Source of the DNA: Patescibacteria group bacterium
Lineage (GTDB): Bacteria; Patescibacteriota; Patescibacteriia; UBA1558; UBA10009
Length of the DNA: 55,298 nt
Direction: 5' to 3'
Assembly (NCBI GenBank): GCA_018818425.1
Contig: JAHISB010000046.1
Coordinates: 1-55,298, forward strand
The notes under the pieces were generated by a model, which saw only the letters and a list, made by a program, of their open reading frames with translations, was not told the DNA's origin and did no database searches. Below, piece after piece: positions 7,709 to 34,378 of the stretch (within the stretch, counting starts at the first letter, position 1; each line of letters begins with the position of its first letter). The translations under genes and the position numbers were made by a program.

Positions 7709-9312
7709 GGATATAAGCTCTGCTCCTTAAAATCCACTATGCTCGGCTGAACCTCCAATTGATGTTGGAAAAAGTAACGTTCGTTGAACTCGGCCAGCAG
7801 CGCATCATGACGGGTAAAGTAAAAGTAATAAACAGGATAGCCGGCTGCGATTAACTGGTAAACTCTCTGATAGTCGTAATCCTTATTTAAGCGGAAAATC
7901 ACCGAGCGGCGCGGAAAAAAAACTTTGTCCATTATGTCTGCTACTATTATAGCATTATCTTCGATTTTAGCGCTGACTTGGCTCTGAATCTGTTCGTAGC
8001 TTTTCAAATTATTGTAGACTAAATAAATGCCTTCGTCCTGCCCAAAATAAACCTGTTGAAAAGAAAAATAGCCCAGCACAATAAATAAAACAGCGGTAAC
8101 AAAAGTTACGGCTAATTTTGACTTCTTTAAAAACTTAAACAGACTGTAGCCGATTAAAGGCAGAATAAACACATAAACAGGCAGCCAGTAGCGGACATAA
8201 GAATTGCCAATGGTTATGGCTTGGGGGTCTGGATTATCGTGGAAACTCCAGCTGCCGTAATAAATTACCAGATAACCGCTGATCAACAAGAACAATGCCA
8301 AATATAAAATTCTTTTTTTATCTTTTTTTAATAAAATGAAAAAACCGGCAATTAAAAATCCCAGCAGTGAGATAATAGACCAGACCGGGAACATCTTTAG
8401 GGTGTAATTATAAAAATTGATTAAAGCGGTTCTGGGCTGAAAGCCAAAAGGCAAAAATATCTTTTCAAATATATTCAAGCTTTGAGTGATGATATCTTTG
8501 CCCTGAAGCTCCAAATCCACGGCATAGCCGAAGGAAAAAATTGACTGATAGTTCTGAAAATTAAAATAAAAAACCGGCGCAAATGACAATAAACAAACAA
8601 TAAATGACAATGCTAAATTTGCCCAGTTGATTTTTTTTCTGTAAATGACTAGAAGAATTATAAATAAAGGCAGTAGCCAGGTTATTTCCGAGGTTCTGAC
8701 CATTAAAGCCAGTCCTATAAAAAATCCGAATAATAAATAAAAGGGAATCTTGGCTGACTTAATGGCTTTGATAAAAAGATACATGCTGATGATCAGCAGA
8801 GCAACAAACAGAACATTGGGCATTAAACTTTTGGTGGCATAATACCACCAGGCAGGGGCGATAAGTAGCAGCAAGGCCGATATAAAAGCAATCTGCTTAT
8901 TAAAAATTTCTTTGATTAATAAATAAAAAAAGAAGATGGCCAGACAAGCAAAAATTATTAAAACAAAAGGAATAACTTTTAAAGTAAAAATTTTAGCTAA
9001 GGTTCCGGCGATCAAGGGAAAACCAATGAAAGTGGCAGGCACAGTGTTATTATTAATTACCCTCATGCTCCGTGGCGCCGCTAAATCATCAGCTATCTGA
9101 TTGGCAGAATCCTTAAATTGCAACTCTGACTGTTTGGCAAAAGTATAGGCAAAATAATAATTGGCAGTTTCATCAGGCGAGTTAAAAATTAAATTATCAT
9201 TGATATTTTTCGGCAGCTGATAAATAGCCAAAAAAGAGTAAACAAAAAAGAAAACTATTATCAGAAATATTAAGCTGATTATCTGCCAGTCTAATTGAAC
9301 TTTGTTTTTCAT
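7681..9312 (-). CDS. GT-C fold glycosyltransferase (ArnT/PMT-like)
   Basis: Polytopic membrane protein with SPDE acidic motif after TM1, LMVRTSE, YVRYWLP and a C-terminal soluble domain. Confidence 0.75.
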   Translation of the reverse strand: MKNKVQLDWQIISLIFLIIVFFFVYSFLAIYQLPKNINDNLIFNSPDETANYYFAYTFAKQSELQFKDSANQIADDLAAPRSMRVINNNTVPATFIGFPLIAGTLAKIFTLKVIPFVLIIFACLAIFFFYLLIKEIFNKQIAFISALLLLIAPAWWYYATKSLMPNVLFVALLIISMYLFIKAIKSAKIPFYLLFGFFIGLALMVRTSEITWLLPLFIILLVIYRKKINWANLALSFIVCLLSFAPVFYFNFQNYQSIFSFGYAVDLELQGKDIITQSLNIFEKIFLPFGFQPRTALINFYNYTLKMFPVWSIISLLGFLIAGFFILLKKDKKRILYLALFLLISGYLVIYYGSWSFHDNPDPQAITIGNSYVRYWLPVYVFILPLIGYSLFKFLKKSKLAVTFVTAVLFIVLGYFSFQQVYFGQDEGIYLVYNNLKSYEQIQSQVSAKIEDNAIIVADIMDKVFFPRRSVIFRLNKDYDYQRVYQLIAAGYPVYYFYFTRHDALLAEFNERYFFQHQLEVQPSIVDFKEQSLYPIRILNSEF

Positions 9313-9321
9313 AGTTAGGTT

Positions 9322-9380
9322 ATTATAACAAATAATTTTACCTAAAACAACTTATAAATTTAAGATTTTTATGTTAGAAT
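9322..9380. promoter_or_regulatory. Divergent extended -10 promoters, near-leaderless
   Basis: Minus strand TG-T-TATAAT (9330-9322) 9 nt before ATG 9312; plus strand TG-T-TAGAAT (9372-9380) 6 nt before ATG 9387. Confidence 0.6.
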
Positions 9381-9386
9381 ATAGCT

Positions 9387-11495
9387 ATGATTTCTGTTAT
9401 TAAAACCCCGACCTATTTACTGGTTAGTTTAGTTTTGATTGTTCTTAATCTTTTGCCTTTCTTCGACGGCGGTTTAAGGATGATTTTTGGAGTTTTATAT
9501 CTGTTTTTTTACTCTTTAGTTTTAGGCAACTGGCTGTTTATTAAAAACTCAACTGTCTGCAAATTTGTTTTTGGCCTAATGTTTTTATTAATTCTGGCCA
9601 GTTTAATAGGCACGGCCAGCTTTTATCTGTGGCAATTGAATCTGTGGACTTTTTATTTAACCGTTATTATTATTCCCCTGCTGCTTTTACCGATAATTCA
9701 TAAATATCCCCTGATTTTTGAACCGGCCAGATTACAAATAAAACTGGACATCAATCAGCTGATTCTGCTTGTTAGCTACCTGATTCTGGCCATAACCATT
9801 TTTTATCTGCTGTTTGCCCATCAGACCTCTGAAGCCATCAGAACCCCGTGGCAGGTTTTACCCGGCCAGATCTTTTTACTATACTTTCTGGCCACTCTTT
9901 TTCTTTTTGTCTTTCTGATTATTTCCAAAAATTCTTTTAATCTTCTGCTGATTATTATTCATCTTTTTATGAGTTTTTCGGTAGCTTTAATTATCTACCA
10001 GATTGGCTTTGGCTACGATCCTTTTATCCACCGAAAAAACGTTGAGTTGATTCTGGCCAATGGCACTCTGCTACCCAAGCCCTTTTATTACCTTGGGCAA
10101 TACAGCTTGATTATTTTTTTAAAAAATCTTTTAGCAGTCTCGGCCGACTATCTGGATAAATTACTGGCGCCGGCAATGGCCGCAATTTATGCGCCAGTCA
10201 CTATTTATTATGCTTTCAAAGATAACTTCAAACTAAAAACCAGCTATCTTTATCTGATAATTTTAAGCTTATTGGCCTTCCCCTTCACCCATGTTATTAC
10301 CACCACCCCGCATGCTTTATCGGCTCTATTTTTTATCCTGACCATTTTATTTTCCATATATTATCTGGCTTACCCAAAAACTTCTTCATTGCCATTGTTG
10401 TTGATGGCTCTTTTTACTTTAGCTGTCCATCCTCTGGCCGGACTGCCGCTTTTGTTTGCCGTTATTCTGATTCTGTTATTTTTTAAGCATCAAAAAAATC
10501 TTGCCCTGCCCAAAATTTTGCGCCGCGGCATTTTGTGGGAAATATTTTTGCTAGGCTGTTTGGCTCTGCCGGCGGCTTTTATTATTAATTCCCAAACTTT
10601 ATCCCAGCTTAAAGTAAGTTTCAGCTTTAACTGGCTGATTAGCATCAGCAGCTCTGTTTTTAATAATCCCCTCTTTTTCTACCGCCCCTTTATCGCCATT
10701 TACGATTTAATCTACAACTATGCCAATAATCTGGCAGTTCTCTTTTTAATTGTGATAGCCGTGAGCGTCTATTTTTTAAAAACCAAAAAGCAGTTAAAAA
10801 ATTATGTTATCTATTTAATGATTTTTGCCATGGTTTTTATCAACTATTACCTGTTAAAAACCAGCGTTGATTTTTTCAGTCTGATGGATTACGAGCGACT
10901 TAATTATCCCTTAAGAGTTCTGCAACTTAGCTTATTTTCGCTGCTGCCTCTGCTGATCGTGGGCGGCTACTTGTTTTTCCAGAAAATTTTTAAGCAAAGC
11001 TCTTTAATAATTTTGCTGATGGTTATCCTGCTTTCGTTGGGTGCCACCGCTTCTTTTTACCTTTCTTACCCCAGGGTCGATACCATTGCCGAAAGCCATG
11101 GCTACTCCACTTCCATAACCGACTTAAAAACAGTCAATTTTATCGAACTAATTCAAAATAATGAACCTTACATAGTTTTAGCCAGCCAGCCGGTTTCGGC
11201 GGCCGCCTTAAAAGAACTTGGCTTTAAATATTACTATAACGACTATTTCTTTTACCCGGTGCCCACCGGCAATAAGCTGTATCAGCTTTACGAAGATTTA
11301 ATCTACAGCAAAGAAAAAACAGCCGATATTATTGCCACTGTCAGATATTTAACCGGCGTCAATGACATCTACTTAGTCATCAACTCCTACTGGTTCGACG
11401 CTCAAGATAAAATCAAGGAAGAGAAAGAAATCTGCGACAAGTGGTACGCCATAGACGGCAAAAATTTTATTTTCCAGTATGTGAACAACCGCTGA
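9387..11495 (+). CDS. Large polytopic membrane protein, possibly GT-C type
   Basis: More than 15 hydrophobic segments, GYDPFIH loop motif, C-terminal soluble domain. Confidence 0.6.
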   Translation: MISVIKTPTYLLVSLVLIVLNLLPFFDGGLRMIFGVLYLFFYSLVLGNWLFIKNSTVCKFVFGLMFLLILASLIGTASFYLWQLNLWTFYLTVIIIPLLLLPIIHKYPLIFEPARLQIKLDINQLILLVSYLILAITIFYLLFAHQTSEAIRTPWQVLPGQIFLLYFLATLFLFVFLIISKNSFNLLLIIIHLFMSFSVALIIYQIGFGYDPFIHRKNVELILANGTLLPKPFYYLGQYSLIIFLKNLLAVSADYLDKLLAPAMAAIYAPVTIYYAFKDNFKLKTSYLYLIILSLLAFPFTHVITTTPHALSALFFILTILFSIYYLAYPKTSSLPLLLMALFTLAVHPLAGLPLLFAVILILLFFKHQKNLALPKILRRGILWEIFLLGCLALPAAFIINSQTLSQLKVSFSFNWLISISSSVFNNPLFFYRPFIAIYDLIYNYANNLAVLFLIVIAVSVYFLKTKKQLKNYVIYLMIFAMVFINYYLLKTSVDFFSLMDYERLNYPLRVLQLSLFSLLPLLIVGGYLFFQKIFKQSSLIILLMVILLSLGATASFYLSYPRVDTIAESHGYSTSITDLKTVNFIELIQNNEPYIVLASQPVSAAALKELGFKYYYNDYFFYPVPTGNKLYQLYEDLIYSKEKTADIIATVRYLTGVNDIYLVINSYWFDAQDKIKEEKEICDKWYAIDGKNFIFQYVNNR

Positions 11496-11595
11496 CGACA
11501 CAAACCCTCGCTGACTTACCACAAACCGCTGACATCTTTTATTAGCGGTCAGCGGTCTGTCAGTGGTAAGTCAGTGTGGTCAGTGTTAGTCTGTG
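11451..11595 (+). repeat. Direct repeat copy 1 (3' end of membrane gene plus CACTGAC/GTCAGTG palindrome)
   Basis: Aligns with 12372-12509; last 37 nt identical. Confidence 0.92.
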
Positions 11596-11661
11596 CTTTT
11601 TATTTCCAACGCGCCTCGGCGCGCAGTGGCACGCAAGTTATGAATAACAAAAACTAACAAA

Positions 11662-12390
11662 ATGGATCGGATAACCTTAATTCAAAAAATTATTAAAGAG
11701 GCGAATTTTAGCGCTTATCTTGAGATAGGCACTCAAGCCGGCAAATCATTTTTACCGATTAAGTGTAAATACAAGATTGCCGTTGACCCTATGTTTTGCA
11801 TATCAAGCAAAAGAAAAATAAAATGGCTTTTAAAAAATCCCCTTAATATAAAAAATAAATATTTTGAAGAAACAAGCGATGATTTCTTTGCCAAAAAAAA
11901 ATCATTTCTGGATAAAAGGGGAAAAATAGATATAATATTAATTGACGGATCCCATACCTTTGAAGGGTCTCTAAAAGATGTTTTAAACTCGCTTAAATAC
12001 CTAAACGATAGGGGTGTGATTATACTGCACGACTGCTATCCGCCAAACGTTGCTTCTGCCACGCCTGCAAAATCTAAAAACGAGGCCGCGAAAAAAGAAG
12101 TTGAGGGCTGGACAGGAGAATGGTGCGGAGATGTTTGGAAAACGATTGTCTATTTAAGAAGGGCTTTTTCGGATTTACTCGACGTTTGTATAATAAATAC
12201 AGATTACGGATTGGGAATAGTCAGAATAAAAAATAAAATACAAAAACCCTTGAGCATTGATAACAAATTATTTGACGAGATGCATAAAATTCCATTTGAA
12301 GAAGTAAAGCAAAATGCAGAATCAATGATAGGGCTAAAAGATGAGAATTTTACCAAAGTTTTAATTAATGAATTGGCGGCAAAAATTTAA
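11662..12390 (+). CDS. Class I SAM-dependent methyltransferase (Methyltransf_24-like)
   Basis: YLEIG, AVDP, TSDDFF, DIILIDGSHTFE, GVIILHDC, WCGDVWK. Confidence 0.85.
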   Translation: MDRITLIQKIIKEANFSAYLEIGTQAGKSFLPIKCKYKIAVDPMFCISSKRKIKWLLKNPLNIKNKYFEETSDDFFAKKKSFLDKRGKIDIILIDGSHTFEGSLKDVLNSLKYLNDRGVIILHDCYPPNVASATPAKSKNEAAKKEVEGWTGEWCGDVWKTIVYLRRAFSDLLDVCIINTDYGLGIVRIKNKIQKPLSIDNKLFDEMHKIPFEEVKQNAESMIGLKDENFTKVLINELAAKI

Positions 12391-12509
12391 TTTTTAAGTA
12401 TGTGAATTAGCAACCACTGACGACACGAACCCTCACTGACTTACTACAAACCACTGACAAAAGATGTCAGCGGTCAGTGGTAAGTCAGTGTGGTCAGTGT
12501 TAGTCTGTG
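12372..12509 (+). repeat. Direct repeat copy 2
   Basis: Aligns with 11451-11595. Confidence 0.92.
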
Positions 12510-12532
12510 GCCAAATTTTACCATAAAACTTC

Positions 12533-12560
12533 TTGACAACAACCGCCTTAATGATAATCT
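12533..12560 (+). promoter_or_regulatory. Possible sigma70-type promoter with no ORF downstream
   Basis: TTGACA-N16-TAATCT with a TGn extension. Confidence 0.35.
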
Positions 12561-12574
12561 TAGCCATAAAAATT

Positions 12575-12603
12575 GAGCGAAGTAAAACTTCGCTCGTTTT
12601 TTT
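12575..12603. terminator. Intrinsic terminator, probably bidirectional
   Basis: 9-bp stem gagcgaagt-aaa-acttcgctc, T7 on + side, A-run on the other side; between convergent genes. Confidence 0.75.
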
Positions 12604-12678
12604 ATTTTAACAATATTTTTAAAAATAATTTCTCTATAACCAAAGCCCGCTGAAAAATCAACCATTCTTCTGATAATT

Positions 12679-12981
12679 TTAAGCAACAAGCTCCAATGTT
12701 TTCACCTCATTTTTTAAAACATAGGTTAATGCCTCTGCTTCTGTTTCTAAATCATAACGGGACTGCAAATTAAGCCAGAACTGCGGAGAAACATTAAAAT
12801 ACTTGCCCAAGCGCAAGGCGGTGCCTGCGGTAACCGACCTTGAGCCATGCACAATTTCGTTGATTCTTATGGGGGCCACGCCGATATCTTTGGCCAAACG
12901 GTATTGGCTGATTTCAAATGGAATCAAAAATTCTTCCATTAATATTTCGCCAGGGTGGATGGGTTTTATTTTTTTGGTCAT
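12679..12981 (-). CDS. higA: HigA/VapI-family HTH antitoxin (no cognate toxin adjacent)
   Basis: PIHPGEIL.EEFL, SQYRLAK, RINEIVHG, TALRLGKYF, FWLNLQSRYDL. Confidence 0.93.
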   Translation of the reverse strand: MTKKIKPIHPGEILMEEFLIPFEISQYRLAKDIGVAPIRINEIVHGSRSVTAGTALRLGKYFNVSPQFWLNLQSRYDLETEAEALTYVLKNEVKTLELVA

Positions 12982-13394
12982 AAACTTAACATAATTCGTT
13001 TTTTTATTTTATTGACTATGTTTTCAATTGCGGTTTTATTTTTAATTTGGTGTTCCCAAACTCTAAAAATTTTCCAACCTTTTTGTTTATAGCACTTCAA
13101 AACATCTTTGTCTCTTTTAGAATTTTTAGATATTTTATCAGACCAATATTTTTTATGCGTCACTGGCAAGCGACAATGTTTTTTACATCCATGCCAAAAA
13201 CAAGAATCAATGAAAATGACAGTTTTATATTTTTTTAAAACAATATCCGGCTTTCCAAAGTACTTGCCGGAGTTTTTTCTATAATGAAAACCTTGCTGCC
13301 AAAGCTTTTTGCGAAATAATAATTCAATTTTACTGTCTTTATTTTTAATACGGGACATTATCTCGCTCCGTTTTTTCTTTGAGACAGTATCCAT
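12978..13394 (-). CDS. vsr: Very short patch repair endonuclease
   Basis: RSEIMSRIK, GKPDIV, FIDSCFWHGC, YWSDKI..N..RD, VWEH. Confidence 0.95.
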   Translation of the reverse strand: MDTVSKKKRSEIMSRIKNKDSKIELLFRKKLWQQGFHYRKNSGKYFGKPDIVLKKYKTVIFIDSCFWHGCKKHCRLPVTHKKYWSDKISKNSKRDKDVLKCYKQKGWKIFRVWEHQIKNKTAIENIVNKIKKRIMLSL

Positions 13395-13401
13395 ATAAAA
13401 A

Positions 13402-14469
13402 TTAGCTTTCTATTTTCCATTCCGTCGGCATTGCGATTTTGTCATATCCCCGTTTTTTCATAAAAGGTACTATTTCCTTGCTGGATGGAAACTCCGCGTC
13501 AAATTCGCGTTGGATGTCTTTAATCAAATTCGCTCCAAGATTTCCTCTGTATTTTTTGCTCAAACAAAGTTGATACCAACCGTTTAGATCATTTATCGTG
13601 ATAATGCCTTGTATTCTGTCGCTCCAACCAACTTGTTTCAGCAAAAATTCAATAGACGTTTTTTCTTTATCTACGCAGACAATAACAATTTTATCGGCCA
13701 TTATTTCATCTACCATATTTTCTACAAGTTCAGGCGTGAGAGTTAAATGTTTAACTTGAATTGCGGGACCAAAATTCGACCATATATCTAAACCTCTGTC
13801 AGCCGCGTTTGTCACGCCGACACGAAACAGCGCGGCCGGCATGACAATCTTCATTTGGTTTGAATCAATGCCCAAAACCATTTTAATAAAACTTTCAAAA
13901 TCTTTTAAAATTGAACTGTCTTTATTTCCTATTTCCAAAGTGATTTGCGCTTTTAAATGGCGCACTATTGTCGCAAAAAGAGCATAAACCAAAATTTCAT
14001 ACATTTTGTCTATACTCCTGCGCAGCCCGGGAATTTTTTTAAAAAGCGAAACGATTTTCTTAATCGAAAAAACGTCTGGACTTGAAGTTTTTATATAATC
14101 CTCCACTTCACGAACCGAAGATAGGCGCTGTTCTAACGCTTTGTATATGTAAGCTTCAACATAACCCTTTCCTTTTTTATTGATCGTTCCGAGCTCTTTA
14201 AGAAGTTTCGGCGGTATCGCGTTTGCTTCAAAAACATTATCCTGATATTTTTGGCTTGATGTGCTGCGGCGACCGACTAAAAGCAAAGAGATTTCGTCTC
14301 GCCATTTTTTAGAAATGTTGCGATAAGACTCTAAGTCCATCAAATCCCATCCTCGTTTCGCGCGGTGTTGATGCAGTATCTCGGCTATTTGTATCGGTTT
14401 GTATAAATGAACTCGGGATATTTTTATTATTCTGTCTAATGCTTGTTTGGCGTTAATTTGTTTATGCAT
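13402..14469 (-). CDS. Type II restriction endonuclease, HaeII-like family
   Basis: N-terminal RVHLYKPIQIAEIL and TNAADRGLD..SNFGPAIQVKH recalled from the HaeII family; between a C5 methylase and vsr. Confidence 0.8.
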   Translation of the reverse strand: MHKQINAKQALDRIIKISRVHLYKPIQIAEILHQHRAKRGWDLMDLESYRNISKKWRDEISLLLVGRRSTSSQKYQDNVFEANAIPPKLLKELGTINKKGKGYVEAYIYKALEQRLSSVREVEDYIKTSSPDVFSIKKIVSLFKKIPGLRRSIDKMYEILVYALFATIVRHLKAQITLEIGNKDSSILKDFESFIKMVLGIDSNQMKIVMPAALFRVGVTNAADRGLDIWSNFGPAIQVKHLTLTPELVENMVDEIMADKIVIVCVDKEKTSIEFLLKQVGWSDRIQGIITINDLNGWYQLCLSKKYRGNLGANLIKDIQREFDAEFPSSKEIVPFMKKRGYDKIAMPTEWKIES

Positions 14470-15478
14470 ATATTAAAGAGTCATCTAAAACCTTATTGTT
14501 ATTTTTTGTTTTGGAAATAATTTTAAACATATTGACTTGCTCAAGAATGGGTTGAGGTTCTTGCGCCATGGCTTGGAGCATGGCCATTGCCACGGTTTGT
14601 ATTTTTGGAATAACCACGCTATTGCCGGCCTGTTTACGTACCTGCGTGTCCGATACAACAATTTTAAAAGAATTTGGGAAACCTTGCAACCGCAACATTT
14701 CTCTCGGAGTAAGTCGTCGTTTGCCGTTAACTATCAAATAATTATATGAGCCGTTCGCTCGCAAAGCGCATGAAAATGGATGGATTCCGATATTACCGGA
14801 TTTGTTTTCATGCCACACAGAGAGAAAATCGGGTTGTTTTTTACCCTGCTCTTTAATCCTGGCTTTTATTTTTTTTGCAAAGTATTCGCTAAGAAAATGT
14901 TTTTTGTCTATTTTATCGTCTGGTTCTAAAATATCTTTTAACTTTTTAGTTTTTTGACCGTTTGTCGGAAATTCAAAAGGATAGTTTTCTTTGAATCCAA
15001 CTATTATTATTCGCTCTCTTTTTTGCGGAACTCCAAAATCAAGCCCGTTCAATATTTTATAATGAACATAATATCCTAAACCTTGTAATGTTTGCAAAAT
15101 GACCTTGAAAGTGCGCCCTTTATCATGAGAAACTAGTCTCTTGACGTTTTCAAGCAGAAACGCTTTTGGCTGCTTTGCTTTTAATATGCGTTCAACGTCA
15201 AAGAATAATGTTCCTCTCGTGTCCGCAAAACCCAAGCCATTCCCTATTATGCTAAACGCTTGGCAAGGGAATCCGCCAGTCAAAATATCATGATCCGGTA
15301 TATCATCGGCATTTATTTTTGTAATATCGCCGAAGGGCTTCTCGCCAAAATTTGCCTCGTACATTTTTTGGCAAGGTTCGTCATATTCAGAAGTAAAAAC
15401 GCATTTTCCGCCATTTTGTTCAAATGCGATTCGTATGCCTCCTATGCCGGCAAATAAATCAATAAATGTGAATTTCAT
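14462..15478 (-). CDS. dcm: DNA (cytosine-5)-methyltransferase
   Basis: DLFAGIGG, GFPCQAFS, ENV, PQKRER, RLQGFP, GNSV. Confidence 0.96.
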   Translation of the reverse strand: MKFTFIDLFAGIGGIRIAFEQNGGKCVFTSEYDEPCQKMYEANFGEKPFGDITKINADDIPDHDILTGGFPCQAFSIIGNGLGFADTRGTLFFDVERILKAKQPKAFLLENVKRLVSHDKGRTFKVILQTLQGLGYYVHYKILNGLDFGVPQKRERIIIVGFKENYPFEFPTNGQKTKKLKDILEPDDKIDKKHFLSEYFAKKIKARIKEQGKKQPDFLSVWHENKSGNIGIHPFSCALRANGSYNYLIVNGKRRLTPREMLRLQGFPNSFKIVVSDTQVRKQAGNSVVIPKIQTVAMAMLQAMAQEPQPILEQVNMFKIISKTKNNNKVLDDSLIYA

Positions 15479-15502
15479 AGTTATTTCGCTTTTATTATAT
15501 TT

Positions 15503-15531
15503 ATTATCTCATTTTTTATACAGATATTCAA
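15503..15531 (-). promoter_or_regulatory. Putative sigma70 promoter of the RM operon
   Basis: Minus strand TTGAAT-N17-GATAAT, 24 nt upstream of the dcm ATG. Confidence 0.5.
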
Positions 15532-15554
15532 TAGATGTTTGAGTTTGCCAGCAT

Positions 15555-16445
15555 TTAGTCATCCTTCACAACCACAATCCAGTGCCAGTTTAGTTGGTTG
15601 ATGACGGGGATTTTTAACAGAATTTCATCAATAATCAATAATGTCCATTCAACTATTAGAGGAACTTTGATTCTCTTTTTTAGTTTGAAAATTCGGTAAA
15701 TAGCTTCCAAGCCGTAGTGGAGAAAACCTAAAAGTAACCAGACTCGCTTTAGTTTGAGGACTGAGGACTGAGGACTGAGGACTGATGGAAAATCTGATTT
15801 TATGTAGCCCTGATGGGTTTCGTCGGCTTCGGAATGGCCATGGTATATTCTTAAACTTTTTGACTGGCTAAATAACTTAGTGAACCGCATCATAAACTTG
15901 GAGGGCTCCATGGCTAAAATAATCAGGCCGTCTTTTTGAGTGACGCGTTTTATCTCGGCCAGCGCTTTTTGCTGATTTTCAAAATGGTGGAATGTAGCAA
16001 CCATAAATGTTGCTGTTACGGAGTTTTCTGATAACGGCAAATTTTGACCGTCAGCAACTAAGTAAATAATTTTATTATTACTTATTGAAGACTGATCATT
16101 GATCGCTGTTTTTATTGATTTTACTGACTCTTCGCTGATATCCGAAGCGATTACCTGATATCCTTTTTTGATGAGGGGCTTTAAATCGTAACCGCTGCCG
16201 GAGCCAATTTCCAAAATAACTGAATCTTGAGGCAGTTGATAAAGATATTTTTTAAAATAATTATGATAAAATTTATTTCTTAAAGTATTTAACTGATGGA
16301 CTTCTGCTTCGTCCTGATAAATTTTATTATGAAACTCAATTTCTTTTTTCTGAAAATCAGTAACTTTAGGCAGATAATAAAAAATCCCCTCTTGATCCTG
16401 GGTTTTAGATTTTAGTTCTTGAATTATTTCTTCAATTCTTGACAT
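15555..16445 (-). CDS. Class I SAM-dependent methyltransferase (Methyltransf_11-like)
   Basis: ILEIGSGSG, ASDIS, VADGQNLPL, FHHF, LAEIKRV..KDG. Confidence 0.88.
   Translation of the reverse strand: MSRIEEIIQELKSKTQDQEGIFYYLPKVTDFQKKEIEFHNKIYQDEAEVHQLNTLRNKFYHNYFKKYLYQLPQDSVILEIGSGSGYDLKPLIKKGYQVIASDISEESVKSIKTAINDQSSISNNKIIYLVADGQNLPLSENSVTATFMVATFHHFENQQKALAEIKRVTQKDGLIILAMEPSKFMMRFTKLFSQSKSLRIYHGHSEADETHQGYIKSDFPSVLSPQSSVLKLKRVWLLLGFLHYGLEAIYRIFKLKKRIKVPLIVEWTLLIIDEILLKIPVINQLNWHWIVVVKDD
15755..15789. repeat. Intragenic heptamer tandem (TGAGGAC)x4 plus one degenerate unit
   Basis: tgaggac x4 then tgatgga; encodes PSVLSPQSSVLK on the minus strand. Confidence 0.9.
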
Positions 16446-17608
16446 AAAGTTAATAGTTGCTGAACGTATTTATCCGCCGAAAACTGCTGGACAAACTCAT
16501 AGCCGTTTTGCCCGTAATCTTTCAAGTCTTCTTTAATAATTTTTAGATGGTCCCATTTTTTCAGCAAATCATTTTCATCTGCTGACTTAAAAATAAAACC
16601 TGTCTGACCCTCGATAACCAGTTCTTTAGAGCCGCCGCTGTCCGATACCAGTACCGGCACCTGATGGTTATAAGCTTCGTAGATGACGGTCGGCGAATTA
16701 TCCCACCAAATAGAAGGGACTATTAGAATATTTGATTGATAGAATATTTGATCAATTTGTTGATAATCAACTTTGCCTAAAATTTTAATACGGTTATCAA
16801 CCTTGATCAATTCTTTTATTGACTCTAACTGACTGCCCTGACCAACAATCAATAACTCGCTGTTAGGTTCTGGCCATTTCATAAAAGTTCTGACTAAAAA
16901 TTCAACCCCTTTATGTGATTCAACCTGCCCTAGAAATAACAATTTTAGACGCGTTGGATCTTGGGTCTTAGGTCTTAGGTCTTTGATAATACAAGGATTA
17001 GGCAAGACCGCTGTTTTTGACCCCTTAAAGAAACCATATTCCAGATGCTTATCCAAAACAAACTTTGAAGGCGAAATCACCATATCCGGCGATTTAAATA
17101 GAGCCCGGGTAATTCTGCTGTAGAGCCATAAAAACGGCCCGATTTGGGTCAAATTTTGGCCCTGGCGATACATTGAACCGTGCGGGTCTATCAGCTGGTA
17201 ATCGTGCAGAATATGAATATGGGGCATTTTTAATTTTCTGATAATTTTCGGTATCTGATAACTAAAGCCTTTCAGATTATGGGTGATGATTAATTCGGGC
17301 TGAAAATTATTTAATTCCGACTCAATCTTGGCGGCCGTGTTAAAATTAAACAAATCAAAAAAATGCCACCAGCACTTTTTCAGCCAAGACATTTTATAAT
17401 CGTCCAAAAGATAATAGATGTTTCGGGGATTAAAACGGCAGAGCTTTAAATTACCCTCCGCCAGACAATTCTTAATACCTTCCGGCTGAGTGGTGATAAC
17501 AAGAACCTGATGATTTTTGATTAATTCATTAACGGCCAGTTCAATAACTCTTTCCGTGCCTCCCCTCTGATAAGGTTTATATAAATTGTTAATTAAGCAA
17601 ATCTTCAT
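16424..17608 (-). CDS. Glycosyltransferase family 4
   Basis: RGGTE, HILHDY, FLGQVESHKG, PSIWWDNSPTVIYEA. Confidence 0.92.
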   Translation of the reverse strand: MKICLINNLYKPYQRGGTERVIELAVNELIKNHQVLVITTQPEGIKNCLAEGNLKLCRFNPRNIYYLLDDYKMSWLKKCWWHFFDLFNFNTAAKIESELNNFQPELIITHNLKGFSYQIPKIIRKLKMPHIHILHDYQLIDPHGSMYRQGQNLTQIGPFLWLYSRITRALFKSPDMVISPSKFVLDKHLEYGFFKGSKTAVLPNPCIIKDLRPKTQDPTRLKLLFLGQVESHKGVEFLVRTFMKWPEPNSELLIVGQGSQLESIKELIKVDNRIKILGKVDYQQIDQIFYQSNILIVPSIWWDNSPTVIYEAYNHQVPVLVSDSGGSKELVIEGQTGFIFKSADENDLLKKWDHLKIIKEDLKDYGQNGYEFVQQFSADKYVQQLLTLCQELKK

Positions 17609-17609
17609 T

Positions 17610-18755
17610 TTAGCTTTGGTATAAATCGATTATCTTTTTAACAATGATGGACCAGCCGTATTTTTCTAACACTTTCTGGCGGCCTGCCTTCCCGTATTCA
17701 ATTATCTCTTGGGGATGGTCTAAAAAATATTTCATCTGCTCGGCTAAATGCTCCGCATCTTTGGGGCGGGCCAGGCGGCCGTCCATTTTTTTATTGACGA
17801 CCTGGCGGACGCCGGGCAGATTAGTGGCAATCACCGGCTTGCCGCAGGCCATCGCCTCCAGCAAAACCATGCCAAAGGCCTCGCTTTTGTCGATTGAGGG
17901 CAAAACAAAAAAATCGCAGAGATTATAATATTTAATCAATTCCCCGTCGGGAATGTAGCCGGCAAAAATAACCTTGTCATAAATACCGAATGATTCAGCC
18001 AGATCGATATAAACCTGCTTTAAATCGCCGTCGCCGACCAAAATTAATTTCAGGTCATCCCTGTCCAGCAGTTGGACGGCCTTTAATAAATAATTGACTC
18101 CCTTAAAATAATGAGCGGAATCAAGACCGCCCACAAATAACACAACTTTTTTATTCATCAGCCCATACTTGTTTTTTAAATTGCCATTGGAAAAAGACGG
18201 TTTAAAAAAATCCGTATCCACGCCGTTAGGTATCTCCGCTATCTTATAGCCATATCTCTGTTGATATTTGGCTAACAACGATTCTGTCAAATAATCCCTG
18301 GAAGTGACAATAATCTTATCGGCCTGTTTAACTAAAATAGGCAAAAACAATAAATTATAAATTTTGAAAATACAGCTCCTCCAGCCCCGGCCCACTAAAT
18401 CCATATGATAATGAAGGATTAATTTATTCTTTTTGCCCTTAAAAAACTTCAACAGCACAATGGCCAGACAGGCGCCGATAAAAGGAAAATGAAAATGGAT
18501 AATCTGATAGCGCCATAACCGCCAGAACAGCTGAAAAACTTCAGCGGCATTGCCGTATCTAAAAGCAGTAGCTAATTTATCAATTTTAAAATAGCTTACC
18601 AAATCCCTGTCAAAAACGCCGCGGCGGGGAGTAAAAACTGTAACATTGTACTTTAAGCTGCTTAACTTATCGGCGATCTGATAGGCCACATTGCCCATGC
18701 CGCCGTGATAAGGCGGAAAGGTGGAAACAACTTGAGCTATTTTCATGTTAGTCAT
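17610..18755 (-). CDS. Glycosyltransferase family 4
   Basis: FPPYHGGM, IPNGVD, FVGGL....FKG, EAFGMVLLEAMACGKPV. Confidence 0.94.
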   Translation of the reverse strand: MTNMKIAQVVSTFPPYHGGMGNVAYQIADKLSSLKYNVTVFTPRRGVFDRDLVSYFKIDKLATAFRYGNAAEVFQLFWRLWRYQIIHFHFPFIGACLAIVLLKFFKGKKNKLILHYHMDLVGRGWRSCIFKIYNLLFLPILVKQADKIIVTSRDYLTESLLAKYQQRYGYKIAEIPNGVDTDFFKPSFSNGNLKNKYGLMNKKVVLFVGGLDSAHYFKGVNYLLKAVQLLDRDDLKLILVGDGDLKQVYIDLAESFGIYDKVIFAGYIPDGELIKYYNLCDFFVLPSIDKSEAFGMVLLEAMACGKPVIATNLPGVRQVVNKKMDGRLARPKDAEHLAEQMKYFLDHPQEIIEYGKAGRQKVLEKYGWSIIVKKIIDLYQS

Positions 18756-30530: not shown

Positions 30531-32790
30531 CTTTTTGCTTTAAGATTTCTTGATATCTTGTATAAGCATGGCTGCTGGCTGCCGGCATAATCTCGGCCCA
30601 CTTTTGCAAAGTTGCTAAAGCTTGGTCATATTGCCCATCGGCCGCTAAAAGATCGATTAGATCGTTCCAATAATTAAAATTTTGCGGCTCTATGCTGGTA
30701 AGCTGTTCAAACAGATAAATTAATTTTTTAACATCTTGCTTTTCTTCGCAATAAGCTATAATATCCTGCATCTGGCTCACCGCCATAAACTGATACCCCG
30801 AATCAATCAGCTTATCGTACTGTTCGTGCACTTTATCCAGATTACCCATATTTTTATAGACCACCGCTAAATAGTAATAAGTTTGAGACAATCTATCATT
30901 TATTTCAACGGCCTGGTTTAAATACTCTAAAGCCTTTTCGGGCTGATTGCCGAATAAATAAAGCTGGGCTAAAGTCCATACCGGCCTAAGCCTGCCCGGG
31001 CTTAATTCATTGGCCTTTTTAGCAAATTTTATTCCCTGATTAAGATACTCTATTTGGGGCGATAGTTCCAGTAATAAAGAGTAATTCCTGGACTGAATAT
31101 AATAAAGAAACATATTATTAGGATCTAGTTCAATAGCTTTATCCATCCACTCAATGGCTGTTTGCAAATCCTCGATCTCTTTCTCCTGCGGAGCAATTTC
31201 CATATTCATGCCTATCATTTCATTAAGAGAAGTGGAAAGAAGTATGGCCGGATCTATTTTATTGACGGTTATATTATAGACCAGGCGATAGCCGTCTACT
31301 GATTCAGTATACTTATTAAGTTTTCCATTAATAAAAGCATCGTAAACATAGATATTAGCTTTAACCTCCGGCAAGTTAACGGTGAAAAATAAAATACTAA
31401 ATCCTACAACAACCAGGGGGATAGATAAGTATGGTGAAATTTTTAAATTTTGAAAAACTCTTTTACCAGGCAACACTTCGGCGCTCTCTTGATTATTCGA
31501 ATAAATAAAGGCAATAAAGGCCAGTAGTAAATAAAAAGGTATTAAACTATTCAATGAATCAAAGACAAAAATATTTTGGAAGAAATAACTAAAAAATAAA
31601 AGAAATAAAACAATAAAGGTAGCTGAAGACATCCTGTTTCGGCCGTGCAAATCATAAAGGTAATAAAATATTATTCCAAAAATAGCTAAATACAGCAAGA
31701 GTCCAAAAATTCCCATAGTCGCTGCCATATCAACTAAAGTATTATGAGCGCGGTCGAACCACACTTCGTTGCCTGAATAGTCATAAAAATCTCCTTCAAA
31801 ATACTGGCTGAAAACTATCTGATAATTCTCCGGGCCAACGCCCAGCAATAAATTATCCCTAAAACCCTTTAAGCCCCAGTTCCAGGCATGGAGCCGCGTT
31901 TGCACAGTACTATCGTTTAAGGAATAGCTTGTTAATCGTCTTAACCAATAGTTTCCCTCAACAAAATTGGTTGATCTCAATGAATACAAAATACCGACTA
32001 AAATCAATAAAATTACGCTGCCGACAACTAAAATCTTTATGGCCTTCTGCTTCCAAACTTTTAGCCATAAAGCGATGATAATAAAAGCCGGCAAAGAAAA
32101 GAAAAGAGCTAACAAAGCGCCTCTGGTGCCGGTTAAAATAAGGACAATAAAATCTAAAATAAATATTGAAAGATAATAAAGCTTCCATTTTAAACCGGCT
32201 TTTTCCACTATAAACAATAAAGCAACAAACAAATGAAAGAGCATGTAAGAGGCCAGATAAGCGGCATTGCCAACAGTTCCGTTAACCCTTTCCAGGCCTG
32301 ATTGAAAAGTAAAGGATAAGCCCAGTCTTTGGCTCAAAGAATATAAGCCGATTAGTAAACTGACGAATAAAGTGGCATTCAAAATTATGTTCCAGACTTT
32401 TTTATTATTAAAAACAGAAGCTAAAACTATAAACCAGACAAAATAATGCAAATAATTAAAGGTGCCAAACATTCTCTCCCAATTGCCCCACCAGCTTCTG
32501 GCAAAGCCCTGGCCGGTAAAGGTGGTTAGCAGCATTACCGCAAAAAAGGCGGAAACGGCCCAAATTAGAACTGATTTTTTAGGACGATACTCCGGCTTAA
32601 ATAAAGCTAAAATAAGATAAGCGCCAAAAACTGCCTCTATCAATATTCTTAGAATTAATGTCTTCTGAATTATATAAGGAAAATATGAATGAGGAATAAC
32701 AATCAAGGGCGCTAAAACAACTAAAAGACTGCCGCCGATTATGATAAGCTTTAATATTTTCTCTAAAAGATTATTGTTAACTTGTGACAT
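30514..32790 (-). CDS. O-antigen ligase / O-oligosaccharyltransferase-like protein with C-terminal TPRs
   Basis: RVNGTVGNAAYLA, TGTRGA, R...W, LGVGPENY, DRAHN; ATG 32790 preferred since the extension is encoded by a repeat. Confidence 0.88.
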   Translation of the reverse strand: MSQVNNNLLEKILKLIIIGGSLLVVLAPLIVIPHSYFPYIIQKTLILRILIEAVFGAYLILALFKPEYRPKKSVLIWAVSAFFAVMLLTTFTGQGFARSWWGNWERMFGTFNYLHYFVWFIVLASVFNNKKVWNIILNATLFVSLLIGLYSLSQRLGLSFTFQSGLERVNGTVGNAAYLASYMLFHLFVALLFIVEKAGLKWKLYYLSIFILDFIVLILTGTRGALLALFFSLPAFIIIALWLKVWKQKAIKILVVGSVILLILVGILYSLRSTNFVEGNYWLRRLTSYSLNDSTVQTRLHAWNWGLKGFRDNLLLGVGPENYQIVFSQYFEGDFYDYSGNEVWFDRAHNTLVDMAATMGIFGLLLYLAIFGIIFYYLYDLHGRNRMSSATFIVLFLLFFSYFFQNIFVFDSLNSLIPFYLLLAFIAFIYSNNQESAEVLPGKRVFQNLKISPYLSIPLVVVGFSILFFTVNLPEVKANIYVYDAFINGKLNKYTESVDGYRLVYNITVNKIDPAILLSTSLNEMIGMNMEIAPQEKEIEDLQTAIEWMDKAIELDPNNMFLYYIQSRNYSLLLELSPQIEYLNQGIKFAKKANELSPGRLRPVWTLAQLYLFGNQPEKALEYLNQAVEINDRLSQTYYYLAVVYKNMGNLDKVHEQYDKLIDSGYQFMAVSQMQDIIAYCEEKQDVKKLIYLFEQLTSIEPQNFNYWNDLIDLLAADGQYDQALATLQKWAEIMPAASSHAYTRYQEILKQKDEAIN

Positions 32791-32796
32791 AATGTT

Positions 32797-32885
32797 AAGG
32801 ATTGAGGATTTCGGCCAAAGGCCGACCTGGGCCAAAGCCCATAGACCTATGGCTCGAAGCCTTTGGCTGGAAGGATTGAGGATTT
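32797..32885. repeat. REP-like hairpin copy 2 with a 30-nt nested insert, flanked by a 15-bp direct repeat
   Basis: aaggattgaggattt [cggccaaaggccgacc tgggccaaagcccatagacctatggctcga agcctttggctgg] aaggattgaggattt. Confidence 0.85.
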
Positions 32886-32893
32886 ATAATAAT

Positions 32894-32922
32894 ATACTAC
32901 TTCAATCTAAAATATTTTTCAA
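32894..32922 (-). promoter_or_regulatory. Putative sigma70 promoter of the ligase-TPR-S8 operon
   Basis: Minus strand TTGAAA-N17-TAGTAT. Confidence 0.4.
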
Positions 32923-32975
32923 CCCCTATTTAAGGGTTTACTTGATCTCTGATATTCGCCTATGATTAAGATGCC

Positions 32976-33003
32976 TTGAAAAATAATAGATTATCAGTAT
33001 AAT
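32976..33003 (+). promoter_or_regulatory. Putative promoter of the sugar transferase
   Basis: TTGAAA-N16-TATAAT; an in-frame ATG lies 7 nt downstream at 33011. Confidence 0.55.
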
Positions 33004-34378
33004 GAAGTATATGAATCAATTTTGGGCTAAAATAAACAAATTTATTCTGTTTTTCGGCGATATAGGGCTATTTTACCTTAGTCTTTGGCTGACCCTGGTT
33101 TTACGATACGGAATTAATTACCAGCCGGAGATTTGGATGATGCATTGGCCCGTTTTCACCCGGCTCTTTATTTTATGGTTTATTATATTTTATGCTTTTA
33201 ATCTCTATAATTTATCGGCCTGCAAAAATAACTGGTATTTTTATAACAATTACTTAAAGGCCTTAATCATAAATATTTCCTTGGGCGTCTTGTATTTTTA
33301 TCTCTTTTCTCCCGTTACTGCTATCAGCCCTAAAACTAATCTGATAATCTTAGGCCTGGTTTTTTCCCTGATCTTCTTTCTGTGGCGCAAATTAGTGTTG
33401 GAATTATTTAACTTAAAAAAACTATATCAAAATCTTTTATTTATCGGCTACGAACCTTTAATAAAAGAACTGCTGCCTAAAAACGGCAAACAGCAGCGCT
33501 TTGGCTTCAACTATAAAGGAATTGTCACCGACCAGGCCATGACTGACCCAGCCATAGATCTCGCTCAATACCGTTTTAATGAACTTGATGAGATTATTAA
33601 AAGAGAAAAGATAAATTTACTGGTTATCAATGAGCCGGAAAATGAAAAAATTACCAATCAACTTTTCCAGGTTCTGCCATTAAAAGTAAATTTTATCAGC
33701 TTATCTAACTTTTATGAAACAAACACTGACCGCGTTCCTTTAAAAATAATCAATCGCGGCTGGTTTTTAGATAACTTTTCGGAAGGAGACAGGTCTCTTT
33801 TTGAAACCGCCAAACGATTTTTTGACATCATCTTTTCTGTTATTTTCGGCCTATGGTCGCTTATTTTGATTCCTTTTATTGTTCTGTTTATAAATTTAGA
33901 CAGCAAGGGTAAAATTATCTTCAAACAAATACGTACCGGCAAAGACGGAAAGCCGTTCACCGCTCTAAAATTTAGAACTATGTATAAAAATGCCGAACAG
34001 AATGGCGCCGTCTGGGCCGAAGAAAACGACCCCCGCATAACCAAGGCTGGCAGATTCTTAAGAAATACCCGCTTAGATGAAATTCCCCAGCTTTGGAATA
34101 TTCTTAAAGGCGAAATGAGTTTTGTCGGCCCCAGGCCCGAACGGCCGGAATTTATTGATGAGCTAAAAGAAAAAATTCCTTTTTACAAAGAACGCCTATT
34201 GGTTAAGCCCGGACTAACCGGCTGGGCGCAGATTAACTTTCCTTACGCTTCAAGCGTAGAAGACAGCTTAAAAAAACTGCAATACGATTTATACTACATT
34301 AAACACCGCTCTCTGCTTTTAGATGCCGGTATTATTATCAAAACCATTGCGACGGTTTTAAGCAGTGGGGGGAGGTAA
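33002..34378 (+). CDS. Polyprenyl-phosphate phosphoglycosyl transferase (WcaJ/WbaP family); true start may be 33011
   Basis: KRFFDI, KFRTM, NDPRIT..G.FLR.TRLDEIPQLWN, GEMSFVGPRPE, KPGLTGWAQ. Confidence 0.94.
   Translation: MKYMNQFWAKINKFILFFGDIGLFYLSLWLTLVLRYGINYQPEIWMMHWPVFTRLFILWFIIFYAFNLYNLSACKNNWYFYNNYLKALIINISLGVLYFYLFSPVTAISPKTNLIILGLVFSLIFFLWRKLVLELFNLKKLYQNLLFIGYEPLIKELLPKNGKQQRFGFNYKGIVTDQAMTDPAIDLAQYRFNELDEIIKREKINLLVINEPENEKITNQLFQVLPLKVNFISLSNFYETNTDRVPLKIINRGWFLDNFSEGDRSLFETAKRFFDIIFSVIFGLWSLILIPFIVLFINLDSKGKIIFKQIRTGKDGKPFTALKFRTMYKNAEQNGAVWAEENDPRITKAGRFLRNTRLDEIPQLWNILKGEMSFVGPRPERPEFIDELKEKIPFYKERLLVKPGLTGWAQINFPYASSVEDSLKKLQYDLYYIKHRSLLLDAGIIIKTIATVLSSGGR

Follow-up and report, generated by a model that had tools for sequence, protein, structure and literature searches.

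Introduction

Some integrative elements bring along a replacement for the end of the gene that they target. Elements such as e14 and phage 21 at icd, and the islands resident at tRNA genes, are of this type; they have an integrase gene of their own, and their crossover falls within a short core sequence at the upstream edge of the resulting duplication. The cassettes of integrons are bounded by attC sites, whose core reads GTTRRRY. Repetitive extragenic palindromes (REPs), which also lie between genes, are to our knowledge not known to carry cargo genes. A further source of left-over gene ends is C-terminal displacement, which, together with the orphan 3′ ends it leaves, was reportedly described by Jackson et al. 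in 2009. A further account attributes orphan 3′ ends in Rhs, contact-dependent inhibition (CDI) and type VI secretion system (T6SS) effector-immunity arrays to such displacement, and for the T6SS and Rhs cases it proposes homology-facilitated illegitimate recombination (HFIR) as the mechanism (PMC5361080). HFIR itself has been described in bacteria that transform naturally, and is known from Streptococcus pneumoniae, Acinetobacter baylyi and Pseudomonas stutzeri (PMC3240628). Here we examine a stretch of 55,298 nt (hereafter the window; contig C18, GenBank JAHISB010000046.1) from an uncultured Patescibacteria group bacterium, in which the gene of a methyltransferase dependent on S-adenosylmethionine (SAM) lies between two diverged copies, about 140 nt each, of the end of a neighbouring membrane-protein gene and the palindrome that follows it. 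On balance, and with confidence only somewhat above even, we read these repeats as the scar of a single homology-driven recombination, by HFIR or by a Campbell-type single crossover.

The host belongs to the ultra-small Patescibacteria of groundwater, and its assembly (G000) comprises 1.23 Mb in 54 contigs at 39.5% GC. Gene gain in such reduced, uncultured organisms is poorly documented, and this locus offers a natural example whose joints can still be read.

Repeat structure of the locus

The features on which the argument rests are the following (positions are those of the window).

9387-11495, + strand: gene of a conserved 702-aa multi-pass membrane protein, without a Pfam or NCBIfam family
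11456-11595, + strand: repeat copy 1 (11451-11595 in the initial annotation), consisting of the live gene tail (GKNFIFQYVNNR, then stop) and hairpin 1
11486-11597, unstranded: hairpin 1, an imperfect palindrome of ~110 nt built of C(G/A)CTGAC and GTCAG(T/C)G words, then a T-run (CTTTTTATTT)
11559-11595, + strand: 37-nt identical stretch, perhaps the tract of a crossover or conversion, and the one sequence through which the unit could later be deleted
11596-11661, + strand: 66-nt spacer from hairpin 1 to the methyltransferase start, holding the GC-rich mini-palindrome CGCGCCTCGGCGCG (11610-11623)
11662-12390, + strand: gene of a predicted class I SAM-dependent methyltransferase (Pfam Methyltransf_24), 242 aa, full length
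12375-12410, + strand: displaced relic of the 702-aa gene end (copy 2), which retains the K of ...IFKY... and stops at the ancestral position
12377-12388, + strand: left junction, 12 nt (CGGCAAAAATTT) identical to 11456-11467, the first 5 nt of which are the native codons A239-A240
12411-12511, unstranded: hairpin 2, the better-paired copy, without one 11-nt word present in hairpin 1
12574-12606, + strand: canonical intrinsic-terminator-like hairpin with T-run, downstream of copy 2 and bidirectional by sequence

The initial annotation, made from the sequence alone, had described diverged direct repeats at 11451-11595 and 12372-12509, each with a CACTGAC/GTCAGTG palindromic tract, identical over their final 37 nt and set apart by a TTAG that copy 1 lacks, and in these respects it was accurate. 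The copies align with a mean column identity of 86% over 177 columns (MAFFT), and the alignment places the 4-nt TTAG in copy 2 only. A repeat search found 11559-11595 and 12473-12509 identical at 37 of 37 positions, with 86% identity between 11451-11485 and 12372-12406, and self-BLAST of the whole genome returned the pair as one 149-column match with a spacing of 921 nt. Upstream of the 12-nt identical run at the left junction the copies share no similarity in the alignment, and the right boundary of the duplication is the end of the palindrome. The unit of ~920 bp holds a single open reading frame (ORF), that of the methyltransferase. Within the 1.23-Mb assembly the gene-tail part of the repeat matches only these two places, and the hairpin part has about ten weaker matches at 69-79% identity.

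Both palindromes fold stably (hairpin 1, -55.0 kcal/mol, z = -7.2; hairpin 2, -56.9 kcal/mol, z = -8.3), none of 200 shuffles doing as well, and nine of the 12 occurrences of GTCAGTG in the window, where 1.1 would be expected, fall within them. The top and bottom strands of hairpin 1 fold about equally well (-55.0 and -53.0 kcal/mol), so that the element is a DNA palindrome; folding of both strands revealed no asymmetry that would indicate an RNA signal. All five differences between the left arms of the two hairpins are transitions that keep the pairing as G-T. Rfam returned only sub-threshold matches to generic hairpins (20-24 bits against gathering scores of 72-100), viral contigs held no exact match to 27 nt of the hairpin arm, and a promoter scan gave eight weak sites against 4.6 expected, none of them in the 66-nt spacer. 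The core of the spacer's mini-palindrome, CGCCTCGGCG, occurs six times in the genome and its reverse complement four times; this core is also found within larger hairpin repeats, for example at C43:40220-40387.

Assembly support

For an independent assembly we used Logan contigs (k = 31) of the probable source run and of two runs of another study. These three DNA runs contain the sequence, and no RNA run is among those listed. The source-run contigs cover 8000-11588, 11566-12502 and 12480-15784 without differences, breaking only within the 37-nt identity, and the two runs of the other study hold the same strain at 2-3x in identical pieces, the methyltransferase and restriction-modification genes included. 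The repeat structure is real. An assembly artefact, named in the initial annotation as one thing that would refute its reading, would in its most explicit form place the unit on a separate circular or otherwise located molecule, joined to the contig through the 37-nt repeat; contigs of k = 31 cannot resolve such a repeat, and the three contigs indeed meet only there. This explanation nevertheless deserves hardly any credence. The independent contigs reproduce both diverged copies, each linked to its unique flank in a single contig (8000-11588 and 11566-12502), and depths are equal at 39.4 for the left flank, 38.3 for the unit and 39.8 for the right flank (a ratio of ~0.97). The assembly from which the window derives, moreover, bridges a repeat much shorter than a read, and the same pieces recur in the two other runs.

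The same contigs bear on the earlier suggestion that the unit can be excised to toggle a glycan modification. The contigs of the three runs, examined for an empty allele or a circle, contain no empty allele and no joint that skips the unit. The negative is a weak one: the 37-nt repeat is longer than the contig word (k = 31), so that an empty allele gives no new word and would go unseen in these contigs, and only the depth ratio opposes a sizeable population of empty sites. A reversible toggle of glycan methylation is not supported. Loss of the unit by RecA-dependent recombination within the 37-nt identity, a one-way deletion, is possible, and the contigs show no sign of it.

The displaced gene end

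A homologue of the 702-aa gene occurs in 57 of the 61 genomes searched (G000 included) and always in single copy, the lone genome with two matches having the gene split over two contigs. Its named homologues come from Candidatus Komeilibacteria, the nearest, and from other Patescibacteria. Homologues of the same family end in ...AIDGKN[YF]IF[KE]YVN and stop. Most of the 44 database relatives listed likewise end two residues after the Y (...IF[KE]Y and two residues), and the closest database relative (700 aa, 81% identical over the C-terminal region) ends in ...IFKYIN.

The two copies depart from this consensus in different ways. In copy 1, the live end, the D and F are kept and the K is replaced by Q, and the frame continues for two more codons, into the hairpin; the protein ends in ...DGKNFIFQYVNNR (also written ...AIDGKNFIFQYVNNR), and the TGA stop (11493-11495) is part of the first word of hairpin 1. 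The translation of copy 2 is GGKNLIFKYVN and stop, which upholds the annotation's statement that it holds the last ~12 codons of the gene; here the conserved D has become G and the conserved aromatic residue (Y/F) has become L, both non-conservative changes. Since the ancestral stop position and the K are found in copy 2 and missing from copy 1, copy 2 was not made recently from copy 1 in its present form, and its changes at the conserved D and Y/F are what would be expected of a dead copy. Copy 2 is the displaced former end of the gene, from a different or older allele, and now decaying. No second copy of the gene tail was found in the loci of 19 relatives.

In two genomes of another family (L023 and L028), tandem 8-nt words (GGAGTACG... 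and GGATTAAG...) directly follow the stop of the 702-aa homologue, within the first ~60 nt. Word-repeat tracts at the end of this gene are thus not confined to the present genome.

The methyltransferase and its junction

The predicted methyltransferase matches PF13578 with 43.4 bits (cut-off 26.3) over profile positions 1-105 of 105. Its length of 242 aa falls within that of the listed homologues (229-262 aa), and because all 45 invariant columns of a 17-sequence alignment are kept, the enzyme is probably active. Its family, of proteins of ~240 aa, is large (1050 matches at E ≤ 0.001 among 1450 candidates). The best non-self matches, 72% and 69% identical, lie on short contigs, and the named members are mostly Bacteroidota at no more than 60%. 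NCBIfam has no family for the protein, comparison by sequence with solved structures gave nothing below E 0.1, a metagenome scan for close protein relatives gave 58% identity at best, and viral contigs held only one distant match (38%). The substrate is probably a sugar or glycan: in three of five sampled Bacteroidota loci the homologue adjoins glycosyltransferases, a hexapeptide transferase or a Methyltransf_11 gene, neighbours that fit a glycan substrate without proving it.

The end of this gene is where the duplication begins. The C-terminus, LINELAA-KI, aligns with LINEFAA-YNKN, LINEFAL-PNQGD and LINRASYQI of homologues, and the first bases of copy 2 (12372-12381) double as the methyltransferase's own codons, native sequence reaching A240 (12379-12381). 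The initial annotation had the gene take its C-terminus and stop from copy 2. This holds for the last two codons (K and I) and the stop; the codons through A240 are native. Given how the homologues read at this end, the true junction lies within the 12-nt run CGGCAAAAATTT, and the left boundary is a sharp microhomology joint inside coding sequence, ~30 nt upstream of the palindrome. The palindrome had been taken for the site of integration, a view with which this position is at odds: the duplicated segment starts in coding sequence, at microhomology with the 3′ end of the methyltransferase gene.

A sharp microhomology joint would also be left by a deletion, and copy 2 does resemble a once-functional gene end. 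Two tandem 702-aa genes, each with its hairpin, might accordingly have enclosed the methyltransferase until a deletion of ~2.1 kb left only the final 12 codons of the second one and fused them to the 3′ end of the methyltransferase gene; that partial gene remnants persist in this genome is seen from a frameshifted relic on contig C43 (described below). We consider such a history unlikely, given that the 702-aa gene is single-copy wherever it was found, that no trace of any codon further upstream survives, and that a duplication and a precisely placed deletion would be needed in place of one recombination event.

Among the loci of methyltransferase homologues in other genomes (L031-L165), only four have a direct repeat shared by the two flanks compared, 400 nt on the upstream and 450 nt on the downstream side of the gene (repeats of 14, 27, 42 and 54 nt). 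The 42-nt repeat is a duplicated terminator hairpin and the 54-nt repeat the duplicated 5′ end of a tatC-like gene. The latter stands on a 1902-nt contig (L048) from an unrelated metagenome, where a 46%-identical homologue lies between a truncated and an intact copy of the tatC-like 5′ end (~270-323 and 1706-1759; 54 nt, 91% identical), a second case of this methyltransferase family inside a duplicated host gene end.

Insertion into a variable zone

No methyltransferase gene of this kind was found in any of ten same-family genomes, and a search of 60 relatives gave one weak match only (E 1.7e-4); no other representative of the host genus was among the genomes searched. In five of nine same-family loci (L014, L016, L017, L019 and L020) the 3′ end of the 702-aa homologue abuts or overlaps the 3′ end of a convergent gene, the homologue of 15555-16445 in the window. 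Elsewhere one unmatched ORF lies between the two (L012, L015), the neighbour is a different one (L013), or the contig ends after 319 nt (L018). Here the stops of the two genes are 4059 nt apart, an insertion zone of ~4.06 kb. The methyltransferase gene, not found in the ten same-family genomes and placed between two genes that abut in five of nine loci, is an insertion of foreign sequence in a lineage-specific variable zone of ~4 kb. The initial claim that the unit had been inserted therefore finds support both in the distribution of the gene and in the variability of the site.

Proposed recombination and points against it

In the recombination that we favour, the donor would have been DNA from a related lineage carrying an end of the 702-aa gene, a REP-like palindrome, the 66-nt spacer and the methyltransferase gene. 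The left side would have recombined homologously, either in the end of the 702-aa gene or further upstream. The right side would be an illegitimate joint at CGGCA(AAAATTT), where the 3′ end of the methyltransferase gene met the resident gene 12 codons short of its stop. The tail of the resident gene, together with its palindrome, would thereby have been moved downstream as the dead copy 2, and the imported tail, copy 1, would now close the gene. The route that we prefer is HFIR of a linear fragment taken up by transformation, in which case the 37-nt identity would need a later gene conversion. Alternatively, a circle already carrying the joint may have entered by a Campbell single crossover, with the 37-nt identity as the crossover tract. 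The Campbell-style integration of the initial annotation accordingly survives as one route to the structure and gives way to HFIR of a linear fragment as the preferred one. Neither route would employ a dedicated recombinase or the palindrome itself. ComEC, DprA and RecA are encoded, each above its profile cut-off, together with a ComF-like protein, and by its gene content the host seems equipped for DNA uptake and homologous recombination.

Several observations weigh against this account. Firstly, simple illegitimate recombination does not predict that 37 nt should be perfectly identical when the rest has diverged by ~10%: with 11 substitutions in ~120 aligned nt, the chance that none falls within the 37 is ~0.02. 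A later gene conversion, or a crossover at that place as in the Campbell route, is consequently needed. Secondly, sliding identity of the 702-aa protein against its seven closest relatives shows no clear mosaic break, although at 54-77% identity the comparison carries little information. Thirdly, composition does not mark the methyltransferase gene as foreign to any significant degree, codon usage being ordinary and the GC content of 33.6% lying at the 10th percentile. Fourthly, recombination at the hairpins by enzymes encoded elsewhere in the genome, of the kinds described below, remains conceivable. Finally, while the repeats, the foreign nature of the gene, the site of the joint and the state of copy 2 as a relic are read directly from the comparisons, the donor arrangement and the direction of transfer, and with them the order of events and the route, rest on inference, there being no donor or empty-site genome among those searched.

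The identical right arms may instead recall a copying event within the genome. Long palindromes are classic sites of template switching, and had the methyltransferase already stood behind a hairpin, a template switch or a conversion seeded by the palindrome might have copied gene tail and hairpin to its 3′ end, with later divergence and with conversion keeping the right arm identical. The five pairing-preserving transitions of the left arms accord with such a course, and the 11-nt word by which the hairpins differ suggests slippage-type evolution. Ancestral states, the stop position and the K, are nevertheless found in copy 2 and missing from copy 1; two switches would be required; and the arrival of the methyltransferase would be left unexplained. 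We judge this history improbable, to much the same degree as the tandem-paralogue history.

Other duplicated gene ends in the genome

Two further loci of this genome carry duplicated gene ends. Contig C41 has two copies of the 38 terminal codons of a ComF-like gene, whose product resembles a phosphoribosyltransferase by sequence, at 7743-7896 and 10734-10890 (L172: 1744-1897 and 4735-4891), spaced 2991 nt apart and 85% identical over 157 columns. The pair brackets the genes of a phosphoglycerate mutase and enolase, and the mutase lies next to comF in only one of 11 relatives. Of the two copies, the downstream one is a dead tail, and behind it come GAGGATT word repeats and a tRNA-like region. 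The repeat itself contains no palindrome, from which it follows that a palindrome is not needed as a site. On contig C43 (79312-79470 and 82079-82236), the final ~75 codons of a 494-aa gene recur as a frameshifted relic directly behind the stop of a 528-aa gene; the relic and the intact copy are spaced 2767 nt apart, and the gene of a 430-aa membrane protein stands between them.

Several scars that duplicate or displace gene ends in one genome of 1.2 Mb hint that recombination of this type is frequent. One could go further and regard the present locus, C41 and C43 as products of a recurrent process in Patescibacteria, in which modules of word-repeat palindromes with a substitute gene end displace resident gene ends, guided by the palindrome or catalysed by enzymes of the Xer or REP-associated type; we find this extension doubtful, and slightly more so than either of the two histories set aside above.

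The hairpin family and the cassette reading

The initial annotation regarded the unit as the best candidate for a filled cassette of a repeat system. In such a scheme the palindromes would act as attC- or REP-like sites at which a Xer-like enzyme or a REP-associated tyrosine transposase (RAYT) inserts and excises the ~920-bp unit reversibly. The layout invites the idea, with ORF and hairpin in alternation and an identical arm of 37 nt. The hairpin moreover belongs to a dispersed family: clusters of CTGAC/GTCAG words were counted at ten loci of the genome, the two copies included, and they lie in intergenic spacers hard against gene ends. Candidate enzymes are likewise encoded, in the form of three Xer-like tyrosine recombinases and one clear RAYT (NF047646, 118 bits against a cut-off of 80), with two weak RAYT matches besides.

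Other observations weigh against the scheme. The three Xer-like recombinases are encoded on other contigs and score 133-201 bits against TIGR02249 (integron integrase), whose cut-off is 265; contig C18 itself has no PF00589 match and no recombinase. In keeping with the annotation's remark that no integrase or transposase is nearby, none of these families appeared among the 26 of 27 listed ORFs that were scanned with Pfam in the first 26.5 kb of the window (25 of at least 110 aa and two shorter), ORFs below 110 aa mostly lying outside the scan and a 71-aa ORF at 12474-12689 having been left out. The palindromes beside the RAYT gene use words of a different kind, and the ends of the present hairpins (GAACAAC... 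and ...GTTAGTC), compared by eye, do not fit the attC core. The start of the duplication, ~30 nt before the hairpin and at microhomology with the cargo gene, likewise speaks against a hairpin-targeted enzyme.

Self-BLAST further revealed many local direct repeats of 60-190 nt that bracket one to three genes. Ten genes so bracketed include those of ribosomal proteins S13 (rpsM) and S11 (rpsK), a methionine aminopeptidase and an M16 peptidase. Of the remaining six, one encodes an acyltransferase and one a transglutaminase-like protein, a third has a weak DUF6677 match below cut-off, and three are without a family. Since ribosomal and other core genes are among them, flanking by like repeats does not indicate mobility. 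The relatives add nothing in favour of a cassette: their 19 loci have no second tail, and no such tracts lie around the methyltransferase homologues of L031-L165, the four repeat-bearing loci among them having no CACTGAC tracts, so that the proposal to look for similar flanking tracts around homologues elsewhere ended in a negative. With no joint that skips the unit in the contigs of the three runs, we hold a hairpin-targeted cassette to be quite improbable, more so than the recurrent process just mentioned, and the cassette system as such is not supported. For repeat hunting at large this is a caution: genes between similar hairpin repeats, ribosomal protein genes included, are common here, and the layout alone is no evidence of a cassette. 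A literature search for palindromic intergenic repeats in Patescibacteria found nothing on such elements, as far as the titles and the opening lines of abstracts disclose.

Some further members of these families may be recorded. The RAYT gene lies on contig C15 at ~32741-33292 (L169: 1258-1809, - strand), and the spacer upstream of it (L169: 1806-1970) contains twin copies of a CCGACAGCC...GCTGTCGG palindrome, the words of which are unlike CACTGAC. The weaker RAYT-like ORFs are found on C28, beside ComEC, and on C15. Behind a 515-aa gene on contig C16, two hairpins of the CACTGAC/CGCTGA family (12107-12209 and 12488-12638) are spaced 380 nt apart, with only an ORF of ~48 codons between them, and the terminator-like motif GGTAATAAAAAACCGC comes directly after each.

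Genomic surroundings

The 4059-nt zone holds, in addition to the methyltransferase gene, copy 2 and the terminator, the genes listed here up to the convergent gene at its far edge.

12679-12981, - strand: orphan HigA-type antitoxin, with no HigB (TIGR02607)
12978-13394, - strand: Vsr (Pfam)
13402-14469, - strand: HaeII-family restriction endonuclease (Pfam)
14462-15478, - strand: C5 cytosine methylase (Pfam)
15555-16445, - strand: conserved, convergent Methyltransf_11 gene, which abuts the 702-aa gene in relatives and forms the far edge of the insertion zone

The antitoxin, Vsr, endonuclease and methylase genes (12679-15478, - strand) form a compact restriction-modification island that has no counterpart at this site in the nine same-family loci.

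On a larger scale, the first 26.5 kb of the window are a surface-glycan cluster by Pfam, 22 of the scanned ORFs having a family match, and the methyltransferase sits within it, as the glycan-locus context given initially implied. The cluster encodes RmlD, several sugar dehydratases and epimerases, UDP-glucose dehydrogenase, SAM synthetase, S-adenosylhomocysteine hydrolase, two GT4 and two GT2 glycosyltransferases, and one membrane glycosyltransferase of the PMT_2 type. For the region 16748-18000, the contigs of the source run contain a joint of the 'opposite strands' type at 16748, where the depth is 35.8, as well as loose ends at 16720 and 16752. The joint adjoins a word repeat of the TATTAGAC type (16713-16761) within a GT4 gene, and it may be a graph feature induced by the repeat or an inversion variant.

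Surface-glycan clusters are the kind of locus in which variation between strains is expected. The present case shows an accessory methyltransferase entering such a cluster through homology to a conserved neighbour and not by way of a mobile element.

Comparison with known systems

Integron cassettes share with this locus a promoterless-looking ORF followed by an imperfect palindrome of ~100 nt, and the alternation of ORF and hairpin. They differ in that here there is no integron integrase, the boundaries lie off the hairpin, the tail of a host gene is part of the repeat, and a single unit takes the place of an array. REPs, with the bacterial interspersed mosaic elements (BIMEs) and the RAYTs associated with them, compare in their dispersed intergenic palindromes abutting gene ends and in the presence of a RAYT gene in the genome; the hairpins here are, however, ~100 nt long and composed of repeated words of 7-8 nt, and the palindromes that flank the RAYT gene are of another kind.

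The elements at icd and at tRNA genes come nearer in their products, since imperfect direct repeats of a gene's 3′ end flank the insert and the gene stays intact. Flanking direct repeats of the attL/attR type are present at this locus, and no recombinase gene lies within the unit. Unlike those elements, the locus thus has no integrase, its identical stretch is at the downstream end of the duplication, and the unit is one gene. In the C-terminal displacements of Rhs, CDI and T6SS loci, as here, a new gene end with cargo downstream of it displaces the old 3′ end, which is left as a dead remnant, and HFIR has been proposed as the cause. What is displaced here is, by contrast, 12 codons of a membrane protein that is not a toxin, a methyltransferase takes the place of an immunity gene as the cargo, and a single event is seen in place of an array.

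HFIR is the remaining comparison. The present case is, admittedly, one natural product, read from the genome of an uncultured member of the Patescibacteria, with the homologous side and the donor unseen, and the product retains a duplication of 140 nt that includes a palindrome. The essentials nonetheless agree: foreign DNA, one presumed homologous side, one illegitimate joint, no recombinase encoded by the element, and a host with genes for competence and RecA. In this light the locus is perhaps best placed as a further example of an already known type of event.

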